Shown here: positions 1 through 32,594 of the stretch, piece by piece
Numbering within the stretch: the stretch's first letter is position 1
Layout of the letters: every line of letters begins with the position of its first letter
Source: an uncultured Gammaproteobacteria bacterium
GTDB taxonomy: Bacteria; Patescibacteriota; Microgenomatia; Daviesbacterales; UBA10151
Assembly: GCA_964500725.1 (NCBI GenBank)
Contig: CAZCNP010000002.1
Span: 197,347-261,346, forward strand
Direction: 5' to 3'
DNA: 64,000 nt
The notes under the pieces: generated by a model
Database searches by the model: none
The model's input: only the letters and a program-made list of their open reading frames with translations
What the model was told of the DNA's origin: nothing
Position numbers and translations under genes: made by a program

Positions 1-1045
1 ATTCAGGATAAATAGGAATAGAAAAAATATCTTTACAGATACTTTCTGCTATAGGAAAATCTCCTTTGCGGTATTTCAGATAAGAATAAGCTGGTTGTAA
101 ATGCAGAGGGGTGGGATAATATATTGCAGAGTTAATGCCTTTTTCCATTAATAGGTTAATTATTAAATTGCGTTTTGAGTGACGCAATGTGTAGACGTAA
201 TATACGTGACTGCTATTTGGAAATTTAAAGGGGCGGATGTAAATATCAGAAAGCTTCTCCGAATAATATTTGGCAATTTGCTGTTTTTTCTGATTCCAGC
301 CATCAAGATATCGTAATTTTACCCGAAGTATTGCTGCTTGTAAGTTATCTAACCGGCCGTTATAGCCCACTATCTTGTGATTGTATTTTGAAACCCTGCC
401 GTGATCCCTTAATAAAGAAATATTTTTTGCAATTTTCGAGTTGTTAGTAACTACAGCGCCTCCATCTCCAAAACATCCGAGGTTCTTTGATGGGTAAAAA
501 CTAAAACAGGCAGCATCGCCCCAGGAGCCTACTTTTTTATTCTTATAAGCAGCTCCGTGTGCTTGTGCAGCATCCTCGATGATTTTTAATTTATACTTTC
601 TGGCTATTTCCCAGATTTCATTCATGTTGGTAATCTGTCCGTAAAGGTGAACTACTATAATTGCTTTTGTTTTTTTTGTGATTTTCTTGATAATTTGATT
701 TGAATCCAGATTGTAGGTTTTGGGATCGATGTCTCCAAATACGGGGATTGCACCCATATTTACAATTGCCGCCGCCGTTGCAGTAAAGGTAAGGGTAGGG
801 CAAATTACTTCGTCTCCGTTTTTAATCCCGATAGCTTTCAGTGCAAGTTCCAGGGCTGTACTACCGGAAGAAACGCCAAAGCAATATTTTGCGTCACAAT
901 AATCTGCAAATTCTTTTTCAAATAAATGCAGCTCCTTACCTAAAATGAAGTCGCTTTCCTCGATAACCCCTTTAATAGAATTATCAATTTCTTTTTTGAG
1001 TTTTTGATACTGCAATGGTAAATTCATTAAAGGAATTTGCAGCAT
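1..1045 (-). CDS. DegT/DnrJ/EryC1/StrS-family PLP-dependent sugar aminotransferase. The C-terminus runs off the window start, so the ORF is partial and absent from the ORF track.
   Basis: My own translation of the minus strand: ATG at 1045..1043 (MLQIPLMN...). Further in, the translation reads ...[41 protein letters not shown]... and, near position 1, ...[29 protein letters not shown] and YPSKNLG are hallmark motifs of the DegT aminotransferase family. Confidence 0.8.
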
Positions 1046-1075
1046 AAGGCTTATATATTATGAATAAGAAGTTAT

Positions 1076-2344
1076 TTAGTCAATAATGAGCTTAGCTACT
1101 TTTTCTCCCAGATCAACTGCATAGTTTGTTCCTCTGTCCCAGGGATATACCATATCTAAATTGGCAAGATAGATATTTTTGAGAGGTGTTTTAAATCCTG
1201 GAACCAGCGCTGAGTGTTTTAATCCAACTACGGGTTGAGCAAAGGGATTGATAAATTTGTGGATACTAATCAGATTATTTCTGAAATTGGGATTTATTTT
1301 TAGTAAATAATTACTAAATAAGTTTAAAAGCTGATTTTTGGTCATTTTTAAATAAGGATGATGCTCGGGTAAATAATTTCCGATATAAATTATATGCTGA
1401 TTATTATAATGGATTGGATCCATAAAATTTGTATGCTCTACAAGAACTAGGAAAGGAAAATTTTTTTCGGTAATGTTTAACCAGTAAGTATTCTTTAAAA
1501 AAGGCTTTTTCAATATTAGTATCAAATTTAATGCGTGTAGGTGTTTGATTGTGTTTATTTTTTTAACATACGATTGCGGAAGATTAGGTGTAATACCGGT
1601 AAAGATAGGCGAAGGAGAAGTACAGATGATTTTATCAAACTTAAATAAGCCTTGAGCTGTTTTAATTATACAATTTTTATCTAAAGAGCGAATCGATTTA
1701 ACTTCATGTTTAAGTAGGATTTTTCCTCCTAAGTTTTCTATCTCCTTGCTAATTTCTTCCGTGAAACTGTTGAATCCTTTCTCTGGATAAGCTAAATATG
1801 CTGTTCTTGTCTTAATCCTTGCCCAGAACCAGGAAAGAGAAATTGTATTTTTGTAAATGCCAAACTTTCCGGAGAATAGAGGTTCCCAGATTGATGCTGA
1901 TGCTTTGTTTCCCATCTGTTGCCTTATCCATTCTAATGCCAGTTTATCTTCTAACTTCTTATAATTTTTCAATAACTTTAGATAAGCTAGCGCAAAGCCA
2001 ACTCTGATGCGGGAAAATAATGGGACGTATGGAAAAAATAAAAGCGATAAGGCGCTATCTAACGGTAGGATCCGTTTATTTACTAGTATATTAGTATGAG
2101 GTTTTTTAATAATAACCTTATGTTTAAGTTCTTTTGCTAAGGCTAGTATATTGTCATCATTGGTAAACCAATGGTGATAGGTTTTTTCTAATGTCCAACT
2201 CCATTTTGGACCTCTCAAACCACTTGCCATGCCTCCCACAGCAGCTTCTTTTTCAAAAATATATACGCTATGACCCTTCTGTGCTAAACGAAGTCCTGCT
2301 GTTAGGCCAGTAAATCCTGCGCCTATAATAGCAATTTTCATCAA
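1076..2344 (-). CDS. FAD/NAD(P)-binding oxidoreductase (amine-oxidase / protoporphyrinogen-oxidase-like fold)
   Basis: N-terminal Rossmann dinucleotide-binding motif MKIAIIGAGFTGLTAGLRL..VYIFEKEAAVGGMASG; length 422 aa. The substrate cannot be determined from sequence alone. Confidence 0.55.
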   Translation of the reverse strand: MMKIAIIGAGFTGLTAGLRLAQKGHSVYIFEKEAAVGGMASGLRGPKWSWTLEKTYHHWFTNDDNILALAKELKHKVIIKKPHTNILVNKRILPLDSALSLLFFPYVPLFSRIRVGFALAYLKLLKNYKKLEDKLALEWIRQQMGNKASASIWEPLFSGKFGIYKNTISLSWFWARIKTRTAYLAYPEKGFNSFTEEISKEIENLGGKILLKHEVKSIRSLDKNCIIKTAQGLFKFDKIICTSPSPIFTGITPNLPQSYVKKINTIKHLHALNLILILKKPFLKNTYWLNITEKNFPFLVLVEHTNFMDPIHYNNQHIIYIGNYLPEHHPYLKMTKNQLLNLFSNYLLKINPNFRNNLISIHKFINPFAQPVVGLKHSALVPGFKTPLKNIYLANLDMVYPWDRGTNYAVDLGEKVAKLIID

Positions 2345-2469: not shown

Positions 2470-3897
2470 ATGAAAAACGCAAGAACGCCGCTTTGCTCGA
2501 TTATTATTCTAAACTATAATGGTGAGTTAATTATTAAGGAAGCGCTAGCTTCTTTGATGAGAATGAATTTTCCGAAAGATTTGTATGAAGTGATTGTTGT
2601 TGATAATGATTCTAAAGACAACAGTAAAGAGCTTATAGATAAATTCAAACAGAGACATTCAAATATAAAAACTATTTATTTATCGGAAAATTTGGGATTT
2701 TCCGGTGGTAACAATATAGGAATTAAGGCATCTTTGGGAAAATATGTATGTTTGTTAAATAACGACTGTATTGTTGAAAAGAATTGGTTAAGAGAGATAA
2801 TAAAGACTGCAGAGAAAGATCCAAAAATATTTGCTGTCAATTCAAAAATCTTGGTTTATCAAAGGTTTATGAACCTGAGATTAGCTTTAAATAATGCTTT
2901 TTCTCTTTTATTTATAATACTTACAAAATCCTACCTTCTTAATTTTTCCTCTGCAGATAAACCGTTTTTCTTAAATTTTTATAAGAAAAACGGTTTTTGT
3001 CAAGTTGATATTCCGTATGATCCGATAAACGACCGAGAAATAGAATTTAGTGTTTCGTTAAATATAAATAGAAATATAAGACTTAAGAAGGAAATGCTAA
3101 AAAATATTCTTAGTTTTCAAGAAAGTTGTGTAAGTATTATAGGAATTAAGAGAATTAAAGGAGAAATAGAATTTAATCTAAAAATTAACCTTTCAGGAGG
3201 ATTAAATAAACTTAATTCTTTAGACCAAATTCAGAATGCAGGAATTATGGTATTTCAAGATGGTTATGGAAGAGATATAGGGGCAATTGTTACTGGGGGA
3301 CGACAGCTCTATGAATATGATAAGGGGCAATATAACAAAGAAAAAGAAATTTATGCTGCTTGTGGCGCAGCTGTTTTATATAATAACAAGATTATAAAAG
3401 AGATAGGGTATTTAGATGAGTCTTTTTTTATGTATTATGAAGATGTAGAAATTTGCGAAAGAGCTAGAATGAGAGGTTATAAATCAGTTTATTGTCCCAA
3501 AGCAATTGTCAGGCACCTGCATGCTTTATCAAGTAAAGAAGGATCTCCTTTTTTCTTTTATCATGTTGAAAAAGGTAGGCTTCTTCATATATTCTATATT
3601 TTTCCTTTCAAAATATTTATACAAGAGTACTTCAAAATCGTACTAGCCTCCATGATGAGTTGTTTTGCAATAGTTTTAAAGATAAGAGAATTAATGCAAA
3701 GGTTTAAAAGGGATAAGATATATAATGATCGCCCTAAGTTTATAAGACGAATTCAGTTAGTTAAAGTCCTTTTATATTTCATCTGGAATTCCCCCCGCTT
3801 AATTCTTAATAGAATGAGAAAAAGAAAAATGATAAATAGAAATAAAAGAGATGTGAACTATTTAAACCTTTTGGAAGGGAGATGGTATTTCAAATGA
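2470..3897 (+). CDS. Family 2 glycosyltransferase (GT-A fold) with a roughly 110-aa low-complexity insertion and a C-terminal amphipathic or membrane tail
   Basis: N-terminal SIIILNYNG...VIVVDNDSKDNS...NLGFSGGNNIG and downstream DQIQNAGIMVFQD...YYEDVEICERARMRGYKSVYCPKAIVRHL are typical of GT2 rhamnosyl/glucosyl transferases. Confidence 0.75.
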   Translation: MKNARTPLCSIIILNYNGELIIKEALASLMRMNFPKDLYEVIVVDNDSKDNSKELIDKFKQRHSNIKTIYLSENLGFSGGNNIGIKASLGKYVCLLNNDCIVEKNWLREIIKTAEKDPKIFAVNSKILVYQRFMNLRLALNNAFSLLFIILTKSYLLNFSSADKPFFLNFYKKNGFCQVDIPYDPINDREIEFSVSLNINRNIRLKKEMLKNILSFQESCVSIIGIKRIKGEIEFNLKINLSGGLNKLNSLDQIQNAGIMVFQDGYGRDIGAIVTGGRQLYEYDKGQYNKEKEIYAACGAAVLYNNKIIKEIGYLDESFFMYYEDVEICERARMRGYKSVYCPKAIVRHLHALSSKEGSPFFFYHVEKGRLLHIFYIFPFKIFIQEYFKIVLASMMSCFAIVLKIRELMQRFKRDKIYNDRPKFIRRIQLVKVLLYFIWNSPRLILNRMRKRKMINRNKRDVNYLNLLEGRWYFK

Positions 3898-5468
3898 AGG
3901 CAGTTATTTATGATAAATGGTTGTCTTCTCTAGGGGGTGGCGAAGTGGTTGCTTGTAATATGGCCCAAGCATTAAGAAGAAAAGGGTATAAAGTTTTATT
4001 TGTCGCAGGTAAAAAAGTTTCCAAGTCGAATATTTTTGAAAAGTTGAAAGTTAACGTTTCCGGAATTGAATTTATAGAAATATGGAATGATGAGATTAAA
4101 TTAAAAAAAATAGTAGAAGGCTCTGATTTATTTATAAATACTACCTTTATGGATTATTCAAGAGGTTATGCTAAAAAGAATATTTATTACACTCATTTTC
4201 CCAATAAGTCTTACAATAATTTCAGAGGAATGATTTTTTCAAATTTAGTCTTACCTTTTGTAAAGAAATTTATAAAATCCTTCGAAGCAATTGATTCAGT
4301 AAACGCCCCGACTACGCTAAATAATAGTCCGATTTATTCTTTATCAGAATCTAATAAATATGCCATTTCTCAACTTACGCCAAGTAAAAAAGAGAAAATA
4401 GAATTTCTATTATTTATAGAATACTTTGACAAACAAGCTCTAGAAAATATTGTTATAGAATTAGAAAATGGACGTATTTTAAATAAAGCTGTGAGAATCG
4501 ATCATAATGGAAATACGATTCATTATGCTCTAGAAATATTGCCTAAATCGAATACAGTATACTTAATTATAAATATAGATTTTGATAATCTCAAAAACTA
4601 TAATTTGGAAAAAGGCTCTATCTATTTGCTATACCCAAAAATATATTTAAAACAGTTTTCTTCAGTATTCCTGGGAAACATGGTAGAGAGAATAAGAATT
4701 AAATTAAGAGCGGGAATATTTGTAGATTTAAAGGGAAGATTGAACACATATCAAAGGATAGTTACACATTCAGGATATGTTAAAAAATGGATTAGGAAAT
4801 ACTGGAATAAAGAACCTTTAGTATTATATCCTCCAGTGGACTTACTTTTTAAAAAATATAATCTTAAGATGCGCAAGAAGAAGAATTGGATTTGTTCCGT
4901 AGGAAGATTTTTTACATTAGGACATGGAAAAAAGCAAGAAGTCTTAGTAGAGGCATTTAAAAGATTTTATGATAAAACTAAGGATAAATGGGAGCTTCAT
5001 TTAGTTGGAGGACTGGGTGATGAATCTTCTAGTATTGCTTTTTTTAGATACCTAAGAGAGGTCTCTAAGGGTTATCCTATTTATTTCCATATTGATGCTT
5101 CGGCACATGAAGTAGAGGAGGTTTATTTAAAGTCTAAAATTTATTGGCATGCAACTGGTTTTGGAGAAAATCCTAATACTGAGCCTGTTAAATTCGAACA
5201 TTTTGGAATTGCGCCCATAGAGGCAATGAGTGCTGGTTGTATTCCAGTTCTGTACAATGGTGGGGGATTAAGGGAGATTATACAGATAACTGGTTTAAAT
5301 AGTGATAATCTTTTTATGTCGATTAATCATCTAGTAGAAAATACTATAAAATTTGCAAATGGTCAAAAAACGATTAACTGGGATAAATTGTTTAAGACTT
5401 TAGATAATAATTTTTCTTTAGATACCTTTAGACATAAATTTTTAACGATTGTAAAAGAATTAAAATAA
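3882..5468 (+). CDS. Family 4 (GT-B fold) glycosyltransferase
   Basis: The C-terminal motif EHFGIAPIEAMSAGCIPVLYNGGGLREII matches the GT4 E-x7-E nucleotide-sugar binding region. The start overlaps the upstream stop. Confidence 0.7.
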   Translation: MVFQMKAVIYDKWLSSLGGGEVVACNMAQALRRKGYKVLFVAGKKVSKSNIFEKLKVNVSGIEFIEIWNDEIKLKKIVEGSDLFINTTFMDYSRGYAKKNIYYTHFPNKSYNNFRGMIFSNLVLPFVKKFIKSFEAIDSVNAPTTLNNSPIYSLSESNKYAISQLTPSKKEKIEFLLFIEYFDKQALENIVIELENGRILNKAVRIDHNGNTIHYALEILPKSNTVYLIINIDFDNLKNYNLEKGSIYLLYPKIYLKQFSSVFLGNMVERIRIKLRAGIFVDLKGRLNTYQRIVTHSGYVKKWIRKYWNKEPLVLYPPVDLLFKKYNLKMRKKKNWICSVGRFFTLGHGKKQEVLVEAFKRFYDKTKDKWELHLVGGLGDESSSIAFFRYLREVSKGYPIYFHIDASAHEVEEVYLKSKIYWHATGFGENPNTEPVKFEHFGIAPIEAMSAGCIPVLYNGGGLREIIQITGLNSDNLFMSINHLVENTIKFANGQKTINWDKLFKTLDNNFSLDTFRHKFLTIVKELK

Positions 5469-5474
5469 GCAAGT

Positions 5475-7187
5475 CTAACTCTTTTTTATATAGTACAAAT
5501 CCTTATTAATTTTTTCTACTCCGCTTTCTGTAGCTATTGAATTTACAAAGTTATTGATGAAGGGTTGAAGTTCCTTGATAAAATAATATTTATTAAATTT
5601 TACCATATCAATTTTTCTTCCCTGCATTTCTTCAATAAAAGCCTTAACATTATTTTCCTTTATATATTTAGAGAGTATTGCTGAAAGAGTAAAATTCTCC
5701 GGTAAATCATAACCGCTGTAACCGTTAACCAGTAGGCATTCATGGTATGCAGAAGCCAGCACTAAGGTTGTTATATAGCTTAATCCTATGCGTATATTAG
5801 GAGCGGCATCGAAGTGAGTAAGGGGGAGTTCTATTAAAACTTTCTTTTCCTTTGAACAAATATTCCTTAGTAGTTGATAGTCAGGAGTGATGTAGGCGTT
5901 ATTAGTTGTTTTTAGGTTAAAAGGAATGTATTCTAAAGCAAAAATTATAAATACTAATAGAAAAGCCATTTTGTGATAGGACTTCTTTGTCAAGTTATTA
6001 AGAGATATGAGAGAGAAATAGGTAAGACCAAAAAAGAACAGAAAACTCCAGCGTATTATTACTCTGATTGCCTCAAATAACGGTATATATTTGAGCAGCA
6101 AGCCATATGGTAGCGGAATATTTGCATAATTACCGTTGAAGTTTAATCTTGGGCCTAAAGAAAATATTAATCCAGCAATTAATAAAATAAGGAAATAAGT
6201 TTTTTGCCTGTCCAGTTCAAGATTAATTAAAAGTGATTTTTTAGTCTTCTGCAGTTTAAATAATGCCAAAATTACCAAAGCAGAAATTAAGAAACCAGGA
6301 AACAGATTGCCTCCGGAATTATTAAATTTATTCCATGAGTTTATTAAAGAAGATCTATGGATGATTGAATTAACTGATCTGGTAAATAGATAATCGCTTA
6401 AATTTGCTGAATTAGTAATATATTCCTGCATGTCACGTTTTGCATGGTAAGTATTTCTCATATCTAGATACCCTTTAATAAATACGCCACTTGTTAGGAA
6501 AAAAACAAAGAAGATAATAAAGAATTTATATAGTATTGATTTTAGCTGTTTGAGTTCGACCGCTTTTAACAAATAAAAAATAAAAATAGAAAAAATTAAG
6601 AAAACTGCTGAATACACGTTAGCGAGGAATTGAATTGTTATACCCAAACCAATGAGTATAAGTATTCTTAGCTGAATTTCTTTTCCGGCTTCCTGTTTAA
6701 AAAGGAGATAGAGTGTTAGAAAAAAAGGCCAGTAGGAAAGATCCGGGAGGTGACCTAACTCAAGAAAGAAAAAGGGGGAAAAAATAAAAAATATACTTCC
6801 GCAGAAAGCAATCAAACTTTTTTTAAAAATTTGTTTCCAAAAAAGATATGCGGATGTGAAATTTAAAACAAAATTCAACAAAAATATGATATTGAAACTT
6901 AGAATTAATTTCTTGGTAAGGAAAAAAGGTAAAAGGCCTAAAATAGCTTGTGGTAAAGTAGTATCGGCAAATAATAAGGTATACTTATGGGGATAATATA
7001 TATTTGTATCAAAGAAATTATCAAAATTAAGATTAAGTATCTTGGTCATATTTTGATTTATCAGCCACACGGATGCCGGGTAGTCTGACCAATCTACTAA
7101 ATTAGTGGTAATATTTAAGAATAAGTCTCTGAAAACGATACCGAATAAGAGAAGAAAAAAGGCGAGAAAGATGAGGTATTTTTTCAC
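5475..7187 (-). CDS. Large polytopic membrane protein, putative GT-C-type glycosyltransferase (YfhO-like or DUF-type; family uncertain). Paralog of 7257..8990.
   Basis: Hydrophobic throughout. Shares conserved blocks with the divergent neighbour: LSDYLFTRSVNS vs LSDYIFPVRNHTS, and GPRLNFNGNYANIPLPYGLL vs GPRLNVNGSYLYIPLPYDLA. An Asp-rich first loop (FDNFFDTNIYYPH) is present. Confidence 0.45.
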   Translation of the reverse strand: MKKYLIFLAFFLLLFGIVFRDLFLNITTNLVDWSDYPASVWLINQNMTKILNLNFDNFFDTNIYYPHKYTLLFADTTLPQAILGLLPFFLTKKLILSFNIIFLLNFVLNFTSAYLFWKQIFKKSLIAFCGSIFFIFSPFFFLELGHLPDLSYWPFFLTLYLLFKQEAGKEIQLRILILIGLGITIQFLANVYSAVFLIFSIFIFYLLKAVELKQLKSILYKFFIIFFVFFLTSGVFIKGYLDMRNTYHAKRDMQEYITNSANLSDYLFTRSVNSIIHRSSLINSWNKFNNSGGNLFPGFLISALVILALFKLQKTKKSLLINLELDRQKTYFLILLIAGLIFSLGPRLNFNGNYANIPLPYGLLLKYIPLFEAIRVIIRWSFLFFFGLTYFSLISLNNLTKKSYHKMAFLLVFIIFALEYIPFNLKTTNNAYITPDYQLLRNICSKEKKVLIELPLTHFDAAPNIRIGLSYITTLVLASAYHECLLVNGYSGYDLPENFTLSAILSKYIKENNVKAFIEEMQGRKIDMVKFNKYYFIKELQPFINNFVNSIATESGVEKINKDLYYIKKS

Positions 7188-7256: not shown

Positions 7257-8990
7257 ATGTCGAAAATCAAAAGTATATTTTTAGCAATACCTATACTGCT
7301 GATAATTTTTTATTGGAAAAATACCTTACTTAATATGTCTGATCATCTATATGATTGGAATGATACTTTGTATTTCATTTGGCTGATTCAAAACCATATT
7401 CATAATTTGACAAACTTAAATATCGATCATCTTTTTGATGCGACTGCAATGTATCCATTTAGATACGCATTGTCTTTCGGAGAGCAGTTTTTCTTTCCTT
7501 CGCTAATAGCCCTGGTTGTAAGTCAGTTTAATCAAAACCCGATTTTTCAGTTAAATTTTTTGCTTGTTGTTAATCACATCTTAAATTTTATCTGTTTTTA
7601 TTTACTAGTTAGTTTATTTGTGAAGACTTTTTGGTCAAAAGTGATCTCAGCCTTTTATTTTTCATTTAGCCCTTATTTTTTTGCCCAGTTAGTGCATTTT
7701 CAAATGGTCTTTTTTTGGCCATTACTCCTCTCATTATTTTTCCTTTTTAAGGATAGAGACTTAGAAGATCACAGATTAAAGAATTTATTATTTTCCGGCA
7801 TTTTTCTTGGCATTCAATTTATGAGTAGTATATACCTTGGAACAATGGGGCTCCTGGCAATCATGTTATTTTTTGCAGTGCGGGTATTTTTTGAAAGAAA
7901 ATTTATTTCTTTGTTAAAACAAGCTCTGATTTTGTTAGTTGTATTCCTGCTTACAGCTGGAATTTCTATTTACGGATACATGCTGGCAAAAAACGAGTAC
8001 GGCGGAAAAAGAGAGCTGGGAGAATTCATAACTTATTCGGCTCATCTTAGTGATTATATTTTCCCGGTTAGGAATCACACGTCCTTTCTTTACCAAAGCC
8101 CATTAGTTGTCCGTTGGAATAGCTTTGATCATCATAACTTAGGGGAGAAAGCTGCTTTCATTGGTTTTCTCCCTCTGATTATAATTTTTTTCTATTTAAT
8201 AAAATATGATTGCGACAAAAAAACGTTAGCTTTTTTTATAAGATTAAACAAAGTTACTCTATTTTTGGTGTTACTAGGTTTATTAAGTTTTATTGCTTCG
8301 CTTGGTCCGCGTTTAAATGTTAACGGGTCATATCTTTATATTCCGCTACCCTATGATTTGGCTATAAAAGGTGTTTCCTTAATTGAATTTTTACGCGCCT
8401 TAGCAAGATGGTTTTCACTGGTTATGCTTGCAATGGCGATATTACTTGCTCTTGGGTTAGATAGCTTTTTTGATAACTTAACTAAAAAAATATCTTCAAA
8501 AAAGGTATTTGTCATCGGGTTTTTGATTTTTGGCTTATTTATATTAGAGTTTTACCCTAAGCCTTTGGAGGTTTCTAAGAAGGAGTGGTGGAACCAGGCA
8601 TATAGCTATATGAAAAATGAGCTATGCATTAAAGATAGCCCTGCAGTTTTAGAATATCCATTTGTTTATAGAAATATAGATGGGGGGTTGATTAAAGATC
8701 TGAATTACAAGATGGTTATACTCTTAGCTTCGACTCAACATAGCTGCAGAATCTTAAGCGGATTTTCCGGTTATGAGCCTTCTAGGTATATACAAATAAA
8801 ACAGCAGCTTGATAACGATGGTATCGACCAAAACGATTTAGCGCTTTTACGGAAGCTTGATTTTAAGTACATTAAACTAAATAAGTTTGCAATTTCAGAA
8901 GAAGAAAGAATCTCACTTGCAAAAGACTTAAGAGGTTTTGGTCTAAAGAATGTTTATAAAGATGGGGATGTTGATATCTATGCTTTATGA
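7257..8990 (+). CDS. Large polytopic membrane protein, putative GT-C-type glycosyltransferase. Paralog of 5475..7187.
   Basis: See 5475..7187. N-terminal loop motif NIDHLFDATAMYPF. Confidence 0.45.
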   Translation: MSKIKSIFLAIPILLIIFYWKNTLLNMSDHLYDWNDTLYFIWLIQNHIHNLTNLNIDHLFDATAMYPFRYALSFGEQFFFPSLIALVVSQFNQNPIFQLNFLLVVNHILNFICFYLLVSLFVKTFWSKVISAFYFSFSPYFFAQLVHFQMVFFWPLLLSLFFLFKDRDLEDHRLKNLLFSGIFLGIQFMSSIYLGTMGLLAIMLFFAVRVFFERKFISLLKQALILLVVFLLTAGISIYGYMLAKNEYGGKRELGEFITYSAHLSDYIFPVRNHTSFLYQSPLVVRWNSFDHHNLGEKAAFIGFLPLIIIFFYLIKYDCDKKTLAFFIRLNKVTLFLVLLGLLSFIASLGPRLNVNGSYLYIPLPYDLAIKGVSLIEFLRALARWFSLVMLAMAILLALGLDSFFDNLTKKISSKKVFVIGFLIFGLFILEFYPKPLEVSKKEWWNQAYSYMKNELCIKDSPAVLEYPFVYRNIDGGLIKDLNYKMVILLASTQHSCRILSGFSGYEPSRYIQIKQQLDNDGIDQNDLALLRKLDFKYIKLNKFAISEEERISLAKDLRGFGLKNVYKDGDVDIYAL

Positions 8991-12565: not shown

Positions 12566-12572
12566 TTGAATT

Positions 12573-22289: not shown

Positions 22290-23701
22290 CCATTTTGAAT
22301 AAAGGATTATTTTTATTAATGCTGTTTCTTTTTGCATTTATTCCTTTATACCCTAAATTTCCTCTTTTTAGATTTGAGAGTACCTTTGCAGCAATTAGGT
22401 TAGAAGATTTCTTAATAGCGTTAGCTTTGGTGCTTTGGGTTGTTTATAATTTCAAAAACAGAAAATGGGATTTTTTCACAAAAGATAATATTGGTAAAGC
22501 ATTCTTACTTTTTTTTGCAATAGGTGGTTTATCATTATTTGCGGCAAACTTTCTAACCCACACAGTTGTTCCCCATTTAGGATTGCTGCATTTTGTCAGA
22601 AGGATAGAATTCATGATGCTTTTACCAATTTGTGCCACAGTTTTTACTACCAGAAAAAGAATAATTGCAGCGTTAATAGTTCTAGTAGTCACACTCTTTG
22701 CGGTTAATGTTTATGGAGCAGGACAGTTATATCTAGATTGGCCAGTAATATCTACCACCAACTCTGAGTTTGCTAAGGGTTTGATTTTAAAACTGACCCC
22801 AGGGGCGCGGGTAAATTCTACATTTGCCGGACATTATGATTTGGCAGTATTTTTGGCAGGTGCGTTAGCCTTTTTGTCAGTATTTTTCTTTTCAACAAAA
22901 ATACTGGGAAAAATATTAATACTGGCTCTTGGAGCTTTTTCTTTATTTTTGCTTATTTTAACTGCTGCCAGAGTGTCATTTGTGGCTGCCTTTATCGGAC
23001 TAATCGCTGCTTTAATTTTTTCCAGGAAAAAGAAATATTTAATTTTGATATTTATTGTATTAGTGCTGGCAGCTATTTATCCTTCCCAGATGAGAGATAG
23101 GTTTGTTTCAACAGTTACTATTAATCTATTTAATATGGGACAAAGGTATGAAGGCAGGAATCTAAACCAACAACTTGAAAATAAGCTAAATATCCCAACA
23201 CTTTTTTACAGGATGGCCAGCAGGTCTGCCTCTCAGTCAGCATTTGCCAGTCCCTCTGCAGGGATTCCTACGGATATTGCTCCAGGAGAACCGATTAATG
23301 AGACAGACCTGGCAGTTTATAGGTCCTTTCAAATCAGGCTTAATATGGAATGGCCAAGGGCTATCAATGCCTTTTTGAAAAATCCCTTGACTGGTTTGGG
23401 TTATTCATCATTGGGGTTGGCAACTGATAATGAGTATCTGCGTTCTTTAGGCGAAGTAGGACTTTTAGGAACGGTTGCTTTTGGGCTTATTATATTATCT
23501 GTCTGGAAGAAAATATTAAAAGGAATCAGAAATGAAGATAAACTAATCAGATTGTTTTCTGCGGGTACACTTTCTTTGATTATTGTATTTTTAGCAAATG
23601 GATTATTTATTGATGTGTTTGAAGCATCAAAAATAGCATCACTTTTTTGGATGATTTTAGGACTTAATTTAGCTGCCTTGAAGGCAGCAGAAAGAAAATG
23701 A
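22286..23701 (+). CDS. O-antigen ligase / Wzy_C-family polytopic membrane protein (ligase or polymerase)
   Basis: Conserved Arg in a TM-loop segment (LLILTAARVSFVAAF) and a C-terminal periplasmic-loop motif GLGYSSLGLATDNEYLRSLGEVGLLG, typical of the WaaL/Wzy_C family. Confidence 0.65.
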   Translation: MTILNKGLFLLMLFLFAFIPLYPKFPLFRFESTFAAIRLEDFLIALALVLWVVYNFKNRKWDFFTKDNIGKAFLLFFAIGGLSLFAANFLTHTVVPHLGLLHFVRRIEFMMLLPICATVFTTRKRIIAALIVLVVTLFAVNVYGAGQLYLDWPVISTTNSEFAKGLILKLTPGARVNSTFAGHYDLAVFLAGALAFLSVFFFSTKILGKILILALGAFSLFLLILTAARVSFVAAFIGLIAALIFSRKKKYLILIFIVLVLAAIYPSQMRDRFVSTVTINLFNMGQRYEGRNLNQQLENKLNIPTLFYRMASRSASQSAFASPSAGIPTDIAPGEPINETDLAVYRSFQIRLNMEWPRAINAFLKNPLTGLGYSSLGLATDNEYLRSLGEVGLLGTVAFGLIILSVWKKILKGIRNEDKLIRLFSAGTLSLIIVFLANGLFIDVFEASKIASLFWMILGLNLAALKAAERK

Positions 23702-25164
23702 AACTAACTAAGATATTTGCCAGTCAATATTTTTGGTTGCTAATTATAATTGTATTAGGGTTGCTGGTTAGGCTATATAAAATTGATGCTCCAATTGCTG
23801 ATTGGCATTCATGGAGACAGGCAGATACAGCAGCGGTTACAAGAAACTTTATAAAGATGGGCTTTAACCCATTGTTCCCCAAATATGATGATATGACAGG
23901 AGTATCAGAAAAGCCTGTTGTTAACCCTGCAAGATTTAGATTTGTGGAGTTTCCTGTTTATAATATCTTTGTTTATCCACTTTATTTATTATTTGGTATT
24001 GATGATAAATTGCATAGGTTAGTTTCAGCTCTGTTTTCTTTAGGCAGCACAGCTTTTTTGTTTTTTATAGTTAAAAAATATACTGGTGTGGCAACAGGGC
24101 TTCTTGCTGCCTTTTTATTTGCACTTTTGCCTTTTAATGTTTTTTTCTCCAGGACCACTTTACCAGAACCTACTTTTATTTTCTTTTCTTTAGGGATGAT
24201 TTATTTTATGGGCAATTGGATAGAAAGCAACAAAAACAGCCAGGCTATATTAGGCCTTTTTTTTACAGCAATAGCATTTTTAATTAAGCCCTGGGCCATT
24301 TTTTTCTTTTTACCGCTTCTGTATTTACTTTTCCGACATCAAGGAAGGAAGTTTTGGATTAAGTTTTTACTTTTGACTGCTGTCGCTTTAGCGCCACTTG
24401 CTTTATGGAGGCTTTGGATTCTGCAGCAATCTCAAGGGATACCCGCCTCCAGCTGGCTGTTAAATAGTGATGGTATCCGATTTAAACCGGCCTTTTGGTG
24501 GTGGATTATTTCTGAAAGATTGGGCAGAGAAATTCTAGGAGCAACAGGAATGGTGCTATTTTTCCTAGGAATTTTTATTAAGCCCAAAAATGGCAATTAT
24601 TTTTTTCACTTTTGGGCTTTGTCATCATTTATTTTTATAGCAATTTTTGCAACAGGTAATGTCAGACATAATTACTATCAAATACAGGCAATCCCGATAG
24701 TAAGCATATTCTTGGCTTTGGGGTTCACCCAGCTTTTTAGAAGGAGCAATCTTTTTATAGCAAGATTTTGGACTATGATTTTAGCAATGTTTTTGTTTGT
24801 TTTATCGTTTTATTTTAGTTTTAAAGTAGTTAAGGAATTTTACAATGTGAATAATCCGGATATGGTTGAGGCAGGCAAAACAGCTGATAGGATTTTGCCA
24901 AAAGATGCCATAGTCTTAGCCCCTTACAATGGGGATACCGCATTTTTATATCAGACAAACCGTCCGGGTTTTCCAGTAACAGCTCTGCCTATTCCAGAGT
25001 TGGTTGCAGATTTTGGAGTAACTGCTTATGTATCAACAACAAAAGATGCAAAAACTAATTGGGTGCTGAGGCATTTCCAGGTCCTGAAAGATACAGAGAA
25101 ATTTGTTATAGCTGACCTTACTACTATTAAATCTCCTTTAAGTTCTGATGATCCAGAGCCATAA
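23698..25164 (+). CDS. GT-C-type membrane glycosyltransferase (ArnT/PMT-like or DUF2723-like)
   Basis: N-terminal WHSWRQADTAAVTRNF loop followed by about 11 hydrophobic helices and a C-terminal soluble region. Confidence 0.5.
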   Translation: MKLTKIFASQYFWLLIIIVLGLLVRLYKIDAPIADWHSWRQADTAAVTRNFIKMGFNPLFPKYDDMTGVSEKPVVNPARFRFVEFPVYNIFVYPLYLLFGIDDKLHRLVSALFSLGSTAFLFFIVKKYTGVATGLLAAFLFALLPFNVFFSRTTLPEPTFIFFSLGMIYFMGNWIESNKNSQAILGLFFTAIAFLIKPWAIFFFLPLLYLLFRHQGRKFWIKFLLLTAVALAPLALWRLWILQQSQGIPASSWLLNSDGIRFKPAFWWWIISERLGREILGATGMVLFFLGIFIKPKNGNYFFHFWALSSFIFIAIFATGNVRHNYYQIQAIPIVSIFLALGFTQLFRRSNLFIARFWTMILAMFLFVLSFYFSFKVVKEFYNVNNPDMVEAGKTADRILPKDAIVLAPYNGDTAFLYQTNRPGFPVTALPIPELVADFGVTAYVSTTKDAKTNWVLRHFQVLKDTEKFVIADLTTIKSPLSSDDPEP

Positions 25165-25172
25165 AAACTAAT

Positions 25173-26363: not shown

Positions 26364-26364
26364 T

Positions 26365-27459: not shown

Positions 27460-28517
27460 CTATAGTTCATGATGATTTGGTTCAATGGGGTGGGGCTGAA
27501 AGAGTATTGCTGGGACTTTTGCAAGCCTACCCTGATGCTACCTTATACACCTCTCTTTTTGATGACAGTAATAAAATACTGAAAGAAAAGTTTGGTTCTA
27601 AAAAAATCTTCACTTCGTTTTTGCAAAAAATTCCTGGCTGGAAATATTTTTATAAAGCCCTACTACCTTTTTACGGATTGGCTTTTGAACAGTTTGATTT
27701 TTCCAATTTTGATTTAGTAATTTCTCATACAACCCGTTTTGCTAAAAGTATTATTACTAAACCTGAAACTATCCATATATGTTACTCTCATACCCCACCC
27801 AGATTTTTGTGGCATTTTTCGGGAGAAAAAAATTATGGACTTTTTGACTTACTTTTGTCTAAGCTGAGAATTTATGATGCAATTACTGCCCGAAGGGTAG
27901 ATTATTTTTTGGCTGGTTCTGAAAATGCAAAGAATAGAATAAAAAAAGTTTATAAGGTGCCCTCAAAAGTTGTTTATCCATTTATTGATTTAGAAAGGTT
28001 TAAAAATACCCAGAGTTTTGATGGAGGATATTTTTTAGTAGTAAGCAGATTAAATAAATATAAAAGAGTTGATTTAGCAGTTAAGGCTTGTATGAAATTA
28101 GGTTTATCTCTTAGGGTTATTGGAAGCGGACCTGAGCAAGAAAAGTTACCAAAAACAAAAGAAATAGAGTATCTAGGTAATTTAGATGACAGTTTGACAA
28201 CTGCAGTATTGGCAGGATGCAAAGCTTTAATTATTTGCGGGGAAGAAGATTTTGGACTAACCAGCTTAGAAGCTCAAGCTTTAGGTAAGCCAGTTATAGC
28301 ATTTGCCAAGGGTGGTATTTTAGAAACAGTAATCCTTAATAAAACTGGAATATTATTTGAGGAACAAACAGAGGATAGTTTAGTTGTTGCTTTGCAAAAG
28401 CTTGAATCAATAAAGATTAAACCTGATGATTGTTACCAAAATGCAGAAAAATTCAGCAGAGAAAAATTTTTAAAAAACTTTAAGCAAGAAGTTGCTTCTT
28501 TGTTGTACACTAGATAG
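27450..28517 (+). CDS. GT4 glycosyltransferase
   Basis: FGLTSLEAQALGKPVIAFAKGGILETV; GT-B fold. Confidence 0.65.
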   Translation: MRVAIVHDDLVQWGGAERVLLGLLQAYPDATLYTSLFDDSNKILKEKFGSKKIFTSFLQKIPGWKYFYKALLPFYGLAFEQFDFSNFDLVISHTTRFAKSIITKPETIHICYSHTPPRFLWHFSGEKNYGLFDLLLSKLRIYDAITARRVDYFLAGSENAKNRIKKVYKVPSKVVYPFIDLERFKNTQSFDGGYFLVVSRLNKYKRVDLAVKACMKLGLSLRVIGSGPEQEKLPKTKEIEYLGNLDDSLTTAVLAGCKALIICGEEDFGLTSLEAQALGKPVIAFAKGGILETVILNKTGILFEEQTEDSLVVALQKLESIKIKPDDCYQNAEKFSREKFLKNFKQEVASLLYTR

Positions 28518-29151
28518 ACACATGTTTTACGATTGTTTAAAAAGATTAACAGATTTTGTAGGGTCTTTGGTAGGTTTGATTGTGCTTTCCCCTCTTTTAT
28601 TGCTAGTGGCTTTGGCTATCAAGATAGATTCCTTTGGTCCTATTATGGCTGATACTCCAATGAGAGCTGGCAAGAATGGAAAACTTTTTAAAATATACAA
28701 GTTCCGCTCCATGGTTCAAAATGCACATGAGATTTTAGAAAATAACCCTAAGCTTTTAGAAGAATATAAAAAAAATAGCTACAAAATATTTAATGATCCA
28801 AGAGTAACAAATGTGGGAAAGATAATTAGGAAATACTCAATTGATGAATTCCCTCAGTTCCTTAATATCTTAAAAGGAGAAATGAGTTTAGTAGGGCCTA
28901 GGGCATATTACCCTTACGAACTTGAGGAGCAACAGGAAAAATACCCTCAGTCAAAAAAATATGTTAAAGTGATTTTATCAGGCAAACCAGGACTGACTGG
29001 TGTCTGGCAGGTTACAGGGAGATCTGAGATTAATTTTGATGAGAGGGTAAAAATGGATGCAGGTTATGTTGCCAGAAGATCCATTTTTTATGATGTTTGG
29101 ATAATGCTAAAAACCATCCCAGCAGTTATTTCTGGCAGGGGTGCAGTATAA
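28492..29151 (+). CDS. Small monotopic polyprenyl-phosphate phosphoglycosyltransferase (PglC/WbaP C-terminal domain family, 'bacterial sugar transferase')
   Basis: LKRLTDFVGSLVGLIVLSPLLLLVALAIKIDSFGPIMADTPMRAGKNGKLFKIYKFRSM...DEFPQFLNILKGEMSLVGPRA, the canonical PglC signature. The likely true start is the ATG at 28522. Confidence 0.85.
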   Translation: MLLCCTLDRHMFYDCLKRLTDFVGSLVGLIVLSPLLLLVALAIKIDSFGPIMADTPMRAGKNGKLFKIYKFRSMVQNAHEILENNPKLLEEYKKNSYKIFNDPRVTNVGKIIRKYSIDEFPQFLNILKGEMSLVGPRAYYPYELEEQQEKYPQSKKYVKVILSGKPGLTGVWQVTGRSEINFDERVKMDAGYVARRSIFYDVWIMLKTIPAVISGRGAV

Positions 29152-31045
29152 AATTATGGCGCTTACAAACTTAGGTAAAAGACTAAATTCTCTAGATAAA
29201 AAATACTTAAATCCAAATTCAAATAACAAAGGCAAAAAGAGATTGTTAGTAATTCTTGCGATCGTTGCTCTTGATTTGATTATTCCAGGAGTATTTATTT
29301 TTCTGGGTTTAAAAGGGGTATCAACTAATTCAAAAAGTGTTACTGCTGCGTATAAAAATCAAAATTTCGGCCAGCTGCAACAGGGGATAAAATCAACAAA
29401 AGGAAGTTTGCAGAGCATAGATTCTTCCTTAAATTTTTGGTTTTGGATGAGGGTAATTCCATTTTTAGGAGGATACTATTCTGATATTAAAGGTTTGACT
29501 GGCGCAGGGGTGGAGGAGTTAAAAGCCATAGATATAATTTTTACCAATCTGGAAAAATCTCAGGAAGAGTTAAGGTTTGATGGCAATCCAAAAAGCGGGC
29601 CTGACAGAACAACCCAGGCGATAAATATTTTAAATAAGTCTCTACCTATTTTAGAAAAAGTAGAACCTAATTTAGTAAAGGCTGCAAGTTATGTTGAAAA
29701 TATTGATACTGCCAAATATCCAGAAAAGTTTAAAGGCAAAACAGTAAAGAAAAACTTAGAGGTAGCTAAAAATTTTATATTAGGAGCTGCGGTTGCTGCA
29801 AAAGATGGTAAAGATGCTTTGGCTCTGGCTCCTCAAGCGTTAGGTATACCTTCTGCCAAAAATTACCTGCTGCTTTTCCAGAATGATAAAGAGATACGTC
29901 CAACAGGCGGGTTTTTAACAGCTTATGCAACTCTGACTATCAAAAATGGTCAGGTTGATGCAACTGTCTCTGATGATATTTACAGATTAGATGAAAAGCT
30001 TTTGAAGGTTTGTTTGACCAAAATTTGTCCACTTTCACCTCCTGCTCCAATAGTTAAATACTTACCAGAGGTGACTGGTAAACCAAGGTCGGCTTGGAGC
30101 ATGAGAGATTCTAACTTATCTCCTGATGTGGCAACTTCTGCAAAAGAGTTTGAAAGAATGTACCAGATGCTGGGTGAGGGTTTGCCTTTTGATGGAATTA
30201 TTTTTATAGATTCCCAAGTAGTTGAGGAACTTATTGAGGTGACAGGACCAATAGATGTGTATGGAACTGTTTATTCAGCAGAAGTAGATAAAAGATGCAA
30301 TTGCCCAGGTGTAATTTATGAGCTGGAGTCTTATGCAGAAATTGCAGCCAAAGGAGAAAAAGACAGAAAAGCAATTTTGGGGGTATTGATGCAGCAGATT
30401 TTAGCAAGATCAATTGGGGCAGATATCGAAAAACTGCCACAGCTAGTTGAGACTTTGGCAAGGCTGGCAAATGATAAGCATGTAATGTTTTATATGCATG
30501 ATTCAGCTTTGCAGACTGCTTTAACTAAATTAAATTGGGTAGGAGAGATTAAAAACTTTGATGGTGATTATTTGCATATTAATGATTCAAACTTTGCTGG
30601 AGGAAAATCTAATTTATATGTTGTTCAAACTGTTACCCAGGAAATAACTACCCAGAGAGATGGAACTGTTAAGAAAAAGATTAATATTGAATATAAAAAT
30701 GATCAAGGTTTTGGGATTTGGTTAAATGGTATCAACAGAGATTATGTTAGATTCCTTGTGCCAAAGGGGAGTAAGCTAATATCTTCTAAAGGATCTGAGG
30801 TTCCTGTAACTACCAAAGAGGAGCTGGGTAAAACTGTCTTCGAGGCCTTTATCCAAGTCAGGCCTCAAAATAGCAGGAAATTTGAGATTGAATATACTGT
30901 GCCTTACAATCCTCAAGGAGAGTATAAATTGATGGTTCAAAAACAGCCAGGAGCAAAAGACTTTAGGTATAAAGTCAAAATTAATGGTTCTCAAAAAGCA
31001 GACTTTAAGTTAACCCAAGATAAAGAGATTAGTCTTAGTCTCTAA
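29141..31045 (+). CDS. Membrane-anchored extracytoplasmic protein of unknown function (possibly DUF4012-like)
   Basis: N-terminal TM (LLVILAIVALDLIIPGVFIFLGL) and a large hydrophilic domain with an RPTGGF motif. The family assignment is from memory only. Confidence 0.35.
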   Translation: MQYKIMALTNLGKRLNSLDKKYLNPNSNNKGKKRLLVILAIVALDLIIPGVFIFLGLKGVSTNSKSVTAAYKNQNFGQLQQGIKSTKGSLQSIDSSLNFWFWMRVIPFLGGYYSDIKGLTGAGVEELKAIDIIFTNLEKSQEELRFDGNPKSGPDRTTQAINILNKSLPILEKVEPNLVKAASYVENIDTAKYPEKFKGKTVKKNLEVAKNFILGAAVAAKDGKDALALAPQALGIPSAKNYLLLFQNDKEIRPTGGFLTAYATLTIKNGQVDATVSDDIYRLDEKLLKVCLTKICPLSPPAPIVKYLPEVTGKPRSAWSMRDSNLSPDVATSAKEFERMYQMLGEGLPFDGIIFIDSQVVEELIEVTGPIDVYGTVYSAEVDKRCNCPGVIYELESYAEIAAKGEKDRKAILGVLMQQILARSIGADIEKLPQLVETLARLANDKHVMFYMHDSALQTALTKLNWVGEIKNFDGDYLHINDSNFAGGKSNLYVVQTVTQEITTQRDGTVKKKINIEYKNDQGFGIWLNGINRDYVRFLVPKGSKLISSKGSEVPVTTKEELGKTVFEAFIQVRPQNSRKFEIEYTVPYNPQGEYKLMVQKQPGAKDFRYKVKINGSQKADFKLTQDKEISLSL

Positions 31046-31058
31046 TTGTATAAAGTAT

Positions 31059-32594
31059 ATGCCATCTGTAAATTCTTTGAAGAACCTTCTATTTTCTAGC
31101 AATAAATTTCATTTTCTTGTTGTTTTTTGTATTACAATATTTTTTATTTACCAAGGTAGTTATTTTAGATGGCTGGGATACGAAAGAATTCCTAAGCCAA
31201 TGTTAGATGAATTTGATTATGTTTGGCTTGGACAAAGTGTGAAGGAAACAGGCCTACCTATTGCTTGGACAACATATGATTATCTATATAGAGGTTCGAA
31301 ACTGAACTCTATGCTGGGTGGACTTCAAGGTTTTAGGATGGAGCTTCAAAATCAAGAAGTCAGTATGAGTAAGATACGAGAAATCGGTAGACCTATGTAT
31401 GCAATTAAAGAAATTGATTGGGGAGATGGAGTCAAACATTTATTCTTCGTTGCTCCTTTCTTTGAACATTCACCAGTGGGAGGTTTGATATTTAGTTCAA
31501 TGATAAATAATAAAGTTAAAGATCATTCAGAAGTTAAACCTGAGGATTTTAGAAAGCCTGCTTTAGGTATTGCTATCTTAAATAGCATTTTACTTTTTAT
31601 CTTAATTTATATGGTTTCTAGGCAATATTGGATATCATTGCTTAGTATAGTTATTTATTCTACGGTTCCAACTTACATTTTAGCTAGTAGAACTGCCTTT
31701 CTTGAAAACGCGGTTACGCCGTTCATTCTTGCGCATTTAATTTTATTATCATTAGTATCAAATATGATAAATACCAGTGCTTCTAAAAGGAGTTATTGGT
31801 TAATCTTTCTATGTGGAATAATTGGTGGTTTAGCAGTTCTTGCTAAGGAATCCGCAGCAGGTTTTTTAGTAGGTAGTTTAATTTTACTTTTAATCCAAAA
31901 GGTGTCCAAGAAGTTAGTTTTTACCTTTTTAATTGGGATAGCTACTCCATTGTTGGTATATATTTCTTGGGGGTTATGGATAAATTATAGGGTTTTTATA
32001 GAAATTTTCTTTGCCAACATTGATCGTCCCTTTTTTGGATCGCTAAAGATTGCTTCGATGCTTTCTGCATTGCGGTTTACAGATTTTCCGATTGATGGAT
32101 GGTGGACGTGGGGGTTTATTTCTTTGATTATAGTAGGATTAAATTTTGATAAAAAGTATTTACCAGTAATGATTCCATTTTTGGGTCACTTTTTTCTTAT
32201 TATTTTTTTAAGTAGCTTAAATTACCCTTGGTATTATATTTCTATGATTCCATTTTTTGCTTTTTTTTCAGCCCTAGCCTTATGGCAGATTTATAAAAAC
32301 CCTAACCTTGTAACATCTTTGGTGTTCTTCTTGGTTCCATTATCAAGTAGTTTCTATTGGGGATATGATGTTTTCCGTTCTAGCAGTGTTGGTCAGTATA
32401 GAATTTTATTCGGTGTTTTTATATTCCTTGTTTTTTTAAGGATTAAATATGGTAGTTATAAATATATTCGCTTTTTATGGACAGTCTTTTTTGTGGTGTT
32501 GATTTATCAGATTTCAAAATGGAATCTTCAATCCATGAGTTTCATTATTGATCATTGGGGAAAGCTTCCTCTTCCTAGTCTGTCTAACTTTTAG
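31059..32594 (+). CDS. ArnT/PMT-like GT-C membrane glycosyltransferase
   Basis: MLDEFDYVWLG acidic loop motif after the first TM, then a polytopic hydrophobic core. Confidence 0.55.
   Translation: MPSVNSLKNLLFSSNKFHFLVVFCITIFFIYQGSYFRWLGYERIPKPMLDEFDYVWLGQSVKETGLPIAWTTYDYLYRGSKLNSMLGGLQGFRMELQNQEVSMSKIREIGRPMYAIKEIDWGDGVKHLFFVAPFFEHSPVGGLIFSSMINNKVKDHSEVKPEDFRKPALGIAILNSILLFILIYMVSRQYWISLLSIVIYSTVPTYILASRTAFLENAVTPFILAHLILLSLVSNMINTSASKRSYWLIFLCGIIGGLAVLAKESAAGFLVGSLILLLIQKVSKKLVFTFLIGIATPLLVYISWGLWINYRVFIEIFFANIDRPFFGSLKIASMLSALRFTDFPIDGWWTWGFISLIIVGLNFDKKYLPVMIPFLGHFFLIIFLSSLNYPWYYISMIPFFAFFSALALWQIYKNPNLVTSLVFFLVPLSSSFYWGYDVFRSSSVGQYRILFGVFIFLVFLRIKYGSYKYIRFLWTVFFVVLIYQISKWNLQSMSFIIDHWGKLPLPSLSNF

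Follow-up and report, generated by a model that had tools for sequence, protein, structure and literature searches.

What does a bacterium with a genome of about 1 Mb build with nine GT-C-type membrane glycosyltransferases encoded in one stretch of DNA? The question is raised by positions 1 to 32,594 of a 64,000-nucleotide stretch (contig CAZCNP010000002.1, positions 197,347 to 261,346), called here the window. The bacterium belongs to the Patescibacteria, near Daviesbacteria; named homologues of the encoded proteins come from Candidatus Daviesbacteria and other Microgenomates. The locus is probably devoted to the two-stage assembly of a lipid-linked cell-envelope glycan. Its enzymes are placed by family and fold assignments, and their gene order is conserved among relatives. 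The nine GT-C genes take up 13.7 of the 32.6 kb (42% of the locus DNA), far beyond chance, and the locus as a whole amounts to about 3% of the approximately 1-Mb genome. Genes and proteins are named below by their first coordinate in the window.

GT-C-type proteins of the locus

An earlier reading of the letters alone, the original prediction, had named nine polytopic open reading frames (ORFs) as GT-C enzymes. This assignment was borne out by Pfam, hhalign and homologue matches and by the fold of 9781, with no matches to transporters. The nine genes are as follows.

5475..7187, minus strand: GT-C, DUF6311-type, paralogue of 7257 (PF19830 in the public index; hhalign; BLASTP)
7257..8990, plus strand: GT-C, paralogue of 5475 (PMT_2 19.7 bits, sub-threshold; hhalign to the 5475 family)
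9781..11451, plus strand: GT-C from a family of Patescibacteria without a Pfam or NCBIfam model (fold comparison, hhalign)
11441..12565, plus strand: PIG-V-like (PF04188-type) GT-C (orthologue matches to PF04188)
12573..13958, plus strand: PMT_2 (ArnT/PMT-like) GT-C (PMT_2 59.2 bits; in 37 of 55 related loci)
13955..15478, plus strand: PMT_2-related GT-C (PMT_2 21 bits, sub-threshold; hhalign)
15475..17022, plus strand: PMT_2 GT-C (PMT_2 30 bits)
23698..25164, plus strand: PMT_2 GT-C (PMT_2 54.7 bits)
31059..32594, plus strand: PMT-like GT-C with a first loop of 136 aa (PMT_2 25 bits, sub-threshold)

By sequence, all nine are GT-C-type proteins, eight ArnT/PMT-like and one (11441) PIG-V-like. 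A crude hydropathy scan found 5 to 10 hydrophobic segments in each. In the direct Pfam scan 12573, 23698 and 15475 passed the gathering threshold of PMT_2 (PF13231; 26.1 bits), 31059, 13955 and 7257 (E 0.001) scored beneath it, and 5475, 9781 and 11441 gave no PMT_2 match. Our own Pfam and NCBIfam scans found no match at all for 5475, although the public index lists it under PF19830 (DUF6311).

Family alignments made from related loci and compared pairwise with hhalign link these proteins to one another. The 13955 family matched those of 12573 (98.4%) and 15475 (99.7%), and 5475 matched the families of 12573 (PMT_2; 96%), 7257 (100%) and 9781 (91%). Further links join 9781 to the 13955 family (96.5%), 23698 to the 12573 family (93.8%) and the 31059 family to that of 9781 (95%). 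The paralogues 5475 and 7257 are 30% identical (BLASTP 1e-66). An exhaustive search returned 211 representative homologues of 31059; among 46 that were aligned, PMT_2 matched 32 and the PMT family itself (PF02366) 16. Orthologues of 11441, which are 49 to 74% identical to it, matched PIG-V (PF04188) in 17 of 31 cases (best E 2.2e-9), and 11441 itself gave no match. Weak matches of 12573 and 23698 to the Agl23 model lie far under its cut-off. Profile searches of PDB sequences with the family alignments of 9781, 11441 and 31059, and with 12573 alone, gave nothing meaningful.

The 9781 family is new to Pfam and NCBIfam. The structure model of 9781 has fold matches exclusively among GT-C proteins, including the non-catalytic PIGU and GAB1. 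All 47 sequences of the family share two cysteines, C539 and C543, in their soluble C-terminal domain, a pattern compatible with an extracytoplasmic domain that has a disulfide or binds metal.

The acidic motifs that the original prediction had quoted as GT-C hallmarks are all present, and all lie in the first loop after the first transmembrane (TM) segment: WFDEAINVV in 12573, FGFDQARDAY in 13955, HTDIARDF in 15475, MLDEFDYVWLG in 31059 and WHSWRQADTA in 23698. The two PIG-V-like motifs likewise lie in that loop of 11441: YSE..FARK is found as quoted, and the motif expected to begin with WDxxH reads FDGIHYL, with F in place of W. Across eight family alignments, the Asp/Glu residues of the first loop are invariant or almost invariant; 23698 was inspected as a single sequence. 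D32 and D35 are invariant in the 5475 family (27 of 27 sequences), as are D24 and E25 in the 12573 family (37 of 37) and D66, E152 and R167 in the 11441 family; D36 is conserved in all 10 sequences of the 7257 family. In the 31059 family D50 is kept in 44 and E51 in all 46 of the 46 sequences. In 9781, E43 and D47 are among the conserved positions. The acidic motifs are expected to face outward because of the GT-C fold. Short N-terminal tails with Lys or Arg in eight of the nine proteins fit an N-terminus inside the cell, in a crude count that gave no clear orientation.

One of the nine genes differs between assemblies. A tract of eight A residues at about 16754-16761 in 15475 reads as seven in the assemblies from SRR12113430 and SRR12113422 (L001 and L003), where the resulting frameshift shortens the protein from 515 to 440 aa. 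The difference reflects either phase variation or an assembly error.

Candidate donor synthase, initiating enzyme and accessory genes

The other genes of the locus are listed below.

1..1045, minus strand: DegT/DnrJ/EryC1-type sugar aminotransferase (open frame, with its 3' end left of the window)
1076..2344, minus strand: FAD-dependent amine-oxidase-fold oxidoreductase (Pfam Amino_oxidase 101 bits; NCBIfam PRK07233 381.6 bits, cut-off 252)
2470..3897, plus strand: glycosyltransferase of family 2 (GT2), 475 aa (Glycos_transf_2 102 bits; homologues in 24 of 55 related loci)
3882..5468, plus strand: glycosyltransferase of family 4 (GT4; GT-B), 528 aa (Glycos_transf_1 65.9 bits; in 37 of 55 related loci)
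8997..9728, minus strand: soluble GT2, 243 aa, candidate polyprenyl-phosphate sugar synthase of the Dpm1/AglJ/GtrB/ArnC type (Glycos_transf_2 115 bits)
17019..18878, plus strand: membrane protein with a signal anchor, a NodB/CE4-like domain (CE4, carbohydrate esterase family 4) and a C-terminal multi-helix membrane domain (AlphaFold2 model, Foldseek)
18878-19888 and 19885-20976, plus strand: two GT4 genes, a conserved pair (Glycos_transf_1 64.8 and 131.8 bits; in 27 and 24 of 55 loci)
21020..21622, plus strand: hexapeptide-repeat acetyltransferase, WcaF-like (Hexapep 60.5 bits; NCBIfam WcaF family 101.8 bits, beneath its cut-off)
21744..22289, plus strand: conserved 181-aa protein with a hydrophobic segment at both ends, found between the hexapeptide and Wzy_C genes in relatives
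22286..23701, plus strand: polytopic protein of the Wzy_C family: polymerase, ligase or O-oligosaccharyltransferase (Wzy_C 37.9 bits, cut-off 31.7)
25173-26363, 26365-27459 and 27450-28517, plus strand: three GT4 genes (best GT4-type Pfam scores 81.4, 127.4 and 81.3 bits)
28492..29151, plus strand: small monotopic phosphoglycosyltransferase of PglC architecture with a WbaP-like catalytic domain (Bac_transf 199.9 bits)
29141..31045, plus strand: DUF4012 protein, one TM segment and large ectodomain (DUF4012 85.3 bits)

The protein 8997 is a candidate polyprenyl-phosphate sugar synthase of the Dpm1/GtrB/ArnC type, as had been predicted. Its best PDB match is the Pyrococcus dolichyl-phosphate mannose (Dol-P-Man) synthase 5mlz (E 1.6e-15, residues 4-223), and it also matches GtrB structures. 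The best NCBIfam match is AglJ (residues 5-238, 90.9 bits, cut-off 325), followed by PgfS (58.1 bits, cut-off 500), ArnC (49.7 bits, cut-off 529) and PpgS (38.9 bits, cut-off 370). All these scores fall far beneath the equivalog cut-offs, so that 8997 is family-like rather than an orthologue of a characterised enzyme. Its whole catalytic domain is aligned only by polyprenyl-phosphate glycosyltransferases (5mlz, AglJ, PpgS and a Dol-P hexose transferase); ordinary GT2 enzymes match just the first 100 to 140 residues or so. The segment IQDADLEYDP contains a DAD motif, which resembles the DXD motif of this family. A homologue of 8997 directly adjoins a homologue of 9781 in 18 of the 55 related loci. 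The GT2 at 59568, further to the right in the window, was considered as a second Dpm1-like synthase and rejected, since known GT2 enzymes match its N-terminal part only.

The assignment of 28492 as the initiating enzyme of PglC type also held. This protein of 219 aa has one hydrophobic segment (residues 25-43) and aligns over its full length with the WbaP catalytic domain (2.6e-46) and with PglC (1.7e-26) among PDB sequences; by these matches it is a small monotopic PglC-type phosphoglycosyltransferase.

The remaining inventory required some correction. Six GT4 genes were counted by Pfam, not the seven claimed, and the GT2 genes number two, the Dpm1-like 8997 included. The gene pair 2470 and 3882 belongs to the conserved core. 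A 134-aa minus-strand ORF (27120-27524), antisense to the GT4 genes 26365 and 27450, is probably spurious. The predicted aminotransferase, acetyltransferase and Wzy_C genes were all recovered; the counterpart of the aminotransferase on a sibling contig (L063) is 368 aa long and contains PF01041. No Pfam or NCBIfam family matched the 181-aa protein 21744. The DUF4012 family is reported to be enriched in the Candidate Phyla Radiation (CPR) and in Gram-positive bacteria, and to sit in a capsule/exopolysaccharide (EPS) gene cluster (PMC6744442).

The AlphaFold2 model of 17019 (predicted local distance difference test score, pLDDT, 87.3) consists of a signal anchor, a deacetylase/hydrolase-fold domain of the NodB/CE4-like type of about 370 aa and a C-terminal membrane domain. 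Foldseek placed 3lm3 (DUF3863) at the head of its matches (E 1.7e-11), followed by HP0310, PdaC, PgdA and other polysaccharide and peptidoglycan deacetylases, and eight of 41 homologues match DUF3863. The family alignment gave nothing meaningful against PDB sequences; fold comparison alone was informative. As judged from the fold of this model, 17019 is a membrane-anchored CE4/NodB-like enzyme. Assignments of 17019 as a seventh GT4 or as a GT-C protein were rejected (hhalign; CE4-like fold). One homologue of 1064 aa (P0309) bears a PMT_2 domain, which reflects either a fusion between genes of two adjacent types or two genes merged in the gene call.

From 11441 to 32594 all genes lie on one strand, and neighbours overlap by 1 to 26 nt or are separated by short gaps (<15 nt), which fits the largely coupled gene string that had been described. 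The ORFs 5475 and 8997 lie on the opposite strand. The G+C content is 30 to 35% over the locus and 35 to 40% in the housekeeping genes to its right.

Conservation and genomic surroundings

Scanned with the 9781 family, species-representative genomes yielded 55 loci, spread over Daviesbacteria, Woesebacteria, Roizmanbacteria, Paceibacterota and Falkowbacteria. In Daviesbacteria-like loci the gene order is collinear with the window and the proteins are 50 to 74% identical; in one relative (L064) collinearity extends to include Wzy_C and the PMT_2 gene that follows it, at the position of 23698. More widely, a reduced core recurs that comprises a GT2, a GT4, a 5475/7257-type GT-C, an 8997-like GT2, 9781, 12573, the GT4 pair, the hexapeptide gene and Wzy_C. 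Related loci contain 1 to 7 GT-C genes within at most 21 kb, and some of them have two or three 8997-like GT2 genes. The longest contigs of the relatives reach approximately 1.1 to 1.2 Mb. Collinearity in Daviesbacteria and a core in 55 loci indicate a trait of the lineage, not a quirk of one genome. The locus, whose complexity had been thought unexpected in a small AT-rich genome, is not peculiar to this genome but is conserved in Patescibacteria. A hypervariable or horizontally acquired island was rejected because orthologues in relatives are collinear and 50 to 74% identical.

The collinear relative L064 contains an extra unannotated ORF of 494 aa after its 17019 homologue (11823-13307), and an insert between the GT4 pair and the hexapeptide gene (15485-17842) with a Trp-repressor-like gene, a 310-aa ORF and an Asp/Glu racemase. 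Many third-party annotation (TPA) metagenome-assembled genomes among loci L009-L058 are labelled 'uncultured Gammaproteobacteria' or 'uncultured Pseudomonadales' and bear the Patescibacteria-type locus; these labels look like placeholders or errors.

To the right of the locus lie genes for RecO and glycyl-tRNA synthetase (GlyRS), then a full division and cell-wall cluster (MraZ, a penicillin-binding protein, Mur ligases, MraY, FtsW, MurG and FtsZ). This cluster and a RodA-type gene indicate that the organism makes peptidoglycan. A second small glycan cluster follows at 56.7-62.7 kb, with a Wzx-type gene, two S-adenosylmethionine (SAM) methyltransferases, a GT2, a Wzy_C gene and a tenth GT-C. 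The main features of this region are:

35715-50274: division/cell-wall cluster
53361-54425: RodA-type gene
56746..57978, plus strand: Wzx-type flippase (Polysacc_synt 103.1 bits), the sole candidate flippase in the window
59568-60548: GT2 gene of the second cluster
60523-61674, minus strand: second Wzy_C gene, adjoining the tenth GT-C
61678..62736, plus strand: tenth GT-C, PIG-V-like (PF04188 40.5 bits, cut-off 22.4; 186 bits on the hidden Markov model of the 11441 family)
62733-63503, minus strand: 256-aa protein with Glucodextran_B and Ig-like domains, beside the second glycan cluster

The 256-aa protein may be a surface protein. The left flank is visible on the sibling contig L063, which is identical to the window over the compared stretch (window position 1 corresponds to L063:4782). 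It contains (L063:3-4742) a Gfo/Idh/MocA oxidoreductase, a 301-aa GT2, a 642-aa protein with 12 TM segments and a TagF-like CDP-glycerol glycerophosphotransferase (158.6 bits). The TagF-like gene hints, by sequence, at a teichoic-acid-type polymer. The 642-aa protein was not called as an eleventh GT-C: it matched neither the GT-C family models nor Pfam.

Proposed pathway, rival explanations and significance

The polytopic proteins matched no transporter families, and 8997 and 28492 were recovered as predicted in profile searches; the multi-step extracytoplasmic glycan pathway that had been proposed is thus the best reading of the locus, and we infer from it the following direction of flow, single shared donor and acceptor. 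In a first stage, on the cytoplasmic face, 28492 would prime undecaprenyl phosphate, and the six GT4 enzymes and one GT2 would lengthen the lipid-linked oligosaccharide from nucleotide sugars, some of them presumably tailored by the DegT aminotransferase, the oxidoreductase and the hexapeptide acetyltransferase. The unit would then be flipped, for which 56746 is the only candidate in the window, and polymerised or transferred by the Wzy_C protein 22286. In a second stage, 8997 would produce a polyprenyl-monophosphate sugar that, once flipped, would serve as donor for the nine GT-Cs on the outer face. Each GT-C forms a separately conserved orthologue group, so that the nine probably each add a residue at their own position or to their own acceptor. 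Outside the cell, the membrane-anchored 17019 may act on the product. As acceptor, either a polysaccharide or lipoglycan or a surface protein is conceivable, with a wall-linked or lipid-linked polysaccharide slightly more likely than a protein. Pointers to a polysaccharide are the many GT4 genes, the WcaF-like acetyltransferase, DUF4012, the deacetylase-like fold and the TagF-like neighbour. That the genes act as one unit is supported by their overlapping or abutting arrangement from 11441 to 32594, by collinearity in Daviesbacteria and by the core in 55 loci.

Several findings weigh against this pathway. A single donor synthase would have to supply nine GT-Cs. The only Wzx-type gene is 24 kb away, in a seemingly separate small cluster, and no GtrA-like small flippase was found, the window having no ORF of 60 to 220 aa with at least three hydrophobic segments. 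No ligase of the LytR-CpsA-Psr (LCP) type was found among the ORFs scanned. From the crude count of hydropathy and positive-inside residues, no clear orientation of the first loops emerged. Structural support covers 9781 only, and 5475, 7257 and 13955 are assigned through sub-threshold matches and profile-profile links. Finally, several of the best named matches (AglJ, Agl23, PgfS and PMT) are protein-glycosylation enzymes.

This last point leads to a system for O-glycosylation of an S-layer protein or pilin, in which the Wzy_C protein would be an O-oligosaccharyltransferase of PglL/WsaB type that passes the Und-PP-linked glycan to protein, and the PMT-like GT-Cs would attach or lengthen sugars directly at Ser or Thr. 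The Wzy_C family also includes O-oligosaccharyltransferases, and ultra-small CPR cells reportedly showed an S-layer by cryo-electron microscopy. The PF02366 matches among the 31059 homologues and the near-invariant Asp-Glu pair of their first loop fit such a system, as do the resemblance of 8997 to AglJ (S-layer N-glycosylation) and PgfS (adhesin glycosylation) and the Agl23 matches of 12573 and 23698. However, the AglJ, PgfS and Agl23 matches are far beneath family cut-offs, the locus has no S-layer or pilin gene, and several of its features are those expected of a polysaccharide locus (DUF4012, a WcaF-like acetyltransferase, a CE4-like enzyme and a TagF-like neighbour), so that we regard protein O-glycosylation as rather unlikely. 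The TagF-like gene on the left also bears on a different arrangement, an island of glycosylation genes whose several donor/GT-C pairs would work independently on separate envelope targets (such as a teichoic-acid-like polymer, a lipid and proteins) instead of in one line. Such an arrangement would fit the gene subsets that vary among relatives, with 1 to 7 GT-C genes per locus and sometimes two or three 8997-like genes, the opposite strand of 5475 and 8997, and a second cluster with its own Wzy_C gene and PIG-V-like GT-C. Such an island is unlikely, given that the whole string is collinear and tightly packed in Daviesbacteria and that the window has a single Dpm1-like synthase.

A further reading concerns the activity of the GT-C-like proteins themselves, some of which might be pseudoenzymes, scaffolds or flippase-associated proteins comparable to PIGU/GAB1 or Agl23. 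The non-catalytic PIGU and GAB1 are indeed among the fold matches of 9781, 12573 and 23698 weakly match the Agl23 model, and 15475 is shortened by the homopolymer-length variant in some assemblies. The loop-1 acidic residues, a catalytic hallmark, are nevertheless invariant or nearly so in eight aligned families, and inactivity of some members appears improbable.

The two-stage assembly locus shares features with several known systems. Mycobacterial and corynebacterial synthesis of arabinogalactan and of lipomannan and lipoarabinomannan (LM/LAM) likewise employs many outer-face GT-Cs (PimE, MptA-C, EmbA-C and AftA-D), several of them encoded in clusters, and polyprenyl-monophosphate donors made by GT2 enzymes (Ppm1; decaprenylphosphoryl arabinose, DPA), a role that 8997 would play here. 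However, no Emb, Aft, Mpt or PimE matches were found in Pfam, NCBIfam and PDB sequence searches, so the likeness is at the fold level only. The locus also has no arabinose-donor genes, its GT-C line is joined to a phosphoglycosyltransferase/GT4/Wzy_C line, and its host is not an actinobacterium but has a genome of about 1.1 Mb and a Gram-positive-like envelope. In the three-component systems (GtrA/GtrB/GtrX, ArnC/ArnT, CsbB/YfhO, GacI/GacL and PgfS/PgfM1/PgfM2 of S. mutans), as here, a GtrB/ArnC/PgfS-like GT2 adjoins a GT-C, and in Patescibacteria this adjacency is conserved. These systems have one or two GT-Cs against nine; moreover, GtrB and ArnC have C-terminal TM helices that are missing from 8997, and the window lacks the GtrA-like flippase of Gtr systems.

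Wzy-dependent O-antigen and capsule loci and Gram-positive S-layer glycan (slg) loci resemble the locus in having a phosphoglycosyltransferase, multiple GT4 and GT2 enzymes, amino-sugar tailoring, an acetyltransferase and Wzy_C. GT-C genes are rare in those loci, unlike here, and the Wzx gene of the window lies outside the locus. The Dol-P-sugar pathways of archaea (Agl) and of the eukaryotic endoplasmic reticulum (AglJ, ALG3/9/12, PMT, PIG-V) similarly combine a GT2 like Dol-P-hexose synthases with several ArnT/PMT-like and ALG/PIG-V-like GT-Cs that act one after another; here the context is bacterial, the carrier is presumably undecaprenyl, and no STT3/AglB-type oligosaccharyltransferase was identified. 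The parts of the locus thus come from known superfamilies, and what appears to be new is the architecture: nine to ten GT-Cs, among them the unmodelled 9781 family, one donor synthase, a genome of about 1 Mb and phylum-wide conservation. A search of the open-access full-text literature found no published description of CPR GT-C enzymes or of this locus, and a search on DUF6311 did not lead to the locus either.

A large part of bacterial diversity belongs to the CPR, or Patescibacteria, whose genomes measure about 1 Mb. Most of these bacteria are uncultured, and those in culture grow attached to other microbes. To our knowledge, the chemistry of their envelopes is essentially unknown. The locus offers several handles on it: a candidate synthase for a lipid-linked sugar, nine GT-C families, in eight of which invariant or near-invariant acidic residues have been mapped, and a GT-C family absent from Pfam and NCBIfam. 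Because it recurs across the phylum, the locus probably builds a major cell-surface glycan, and because collinearity is kept across a class-level lineage, the product can be argued to be central to cell biology. In a cultured Saccharibacterium, inactivation of predicted EPS-synthesis genes was lethal or caused a growth deficit (PMC10633639).

We tentatively suggest that at least Microgenomates and some Paceibacterota possess a conserved extracytoplasmic GT-C assembly line for a major envelope glycopolymer, independent of the systems for mycobacterial LM/LAM/arabinogalactan or glycosylated teichoic acids but functionally analogous to them. Its enzymes may include a new CE4-like protein anchored in the membrane and two kinds of GT-C, 9781 and 5475/7257 (DUF6311), whose families lack any characterised member. 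If this is true, the CPR cell surface and the attachment of these cells to their hosts could depend on the glycopolymer as a principal determinant.

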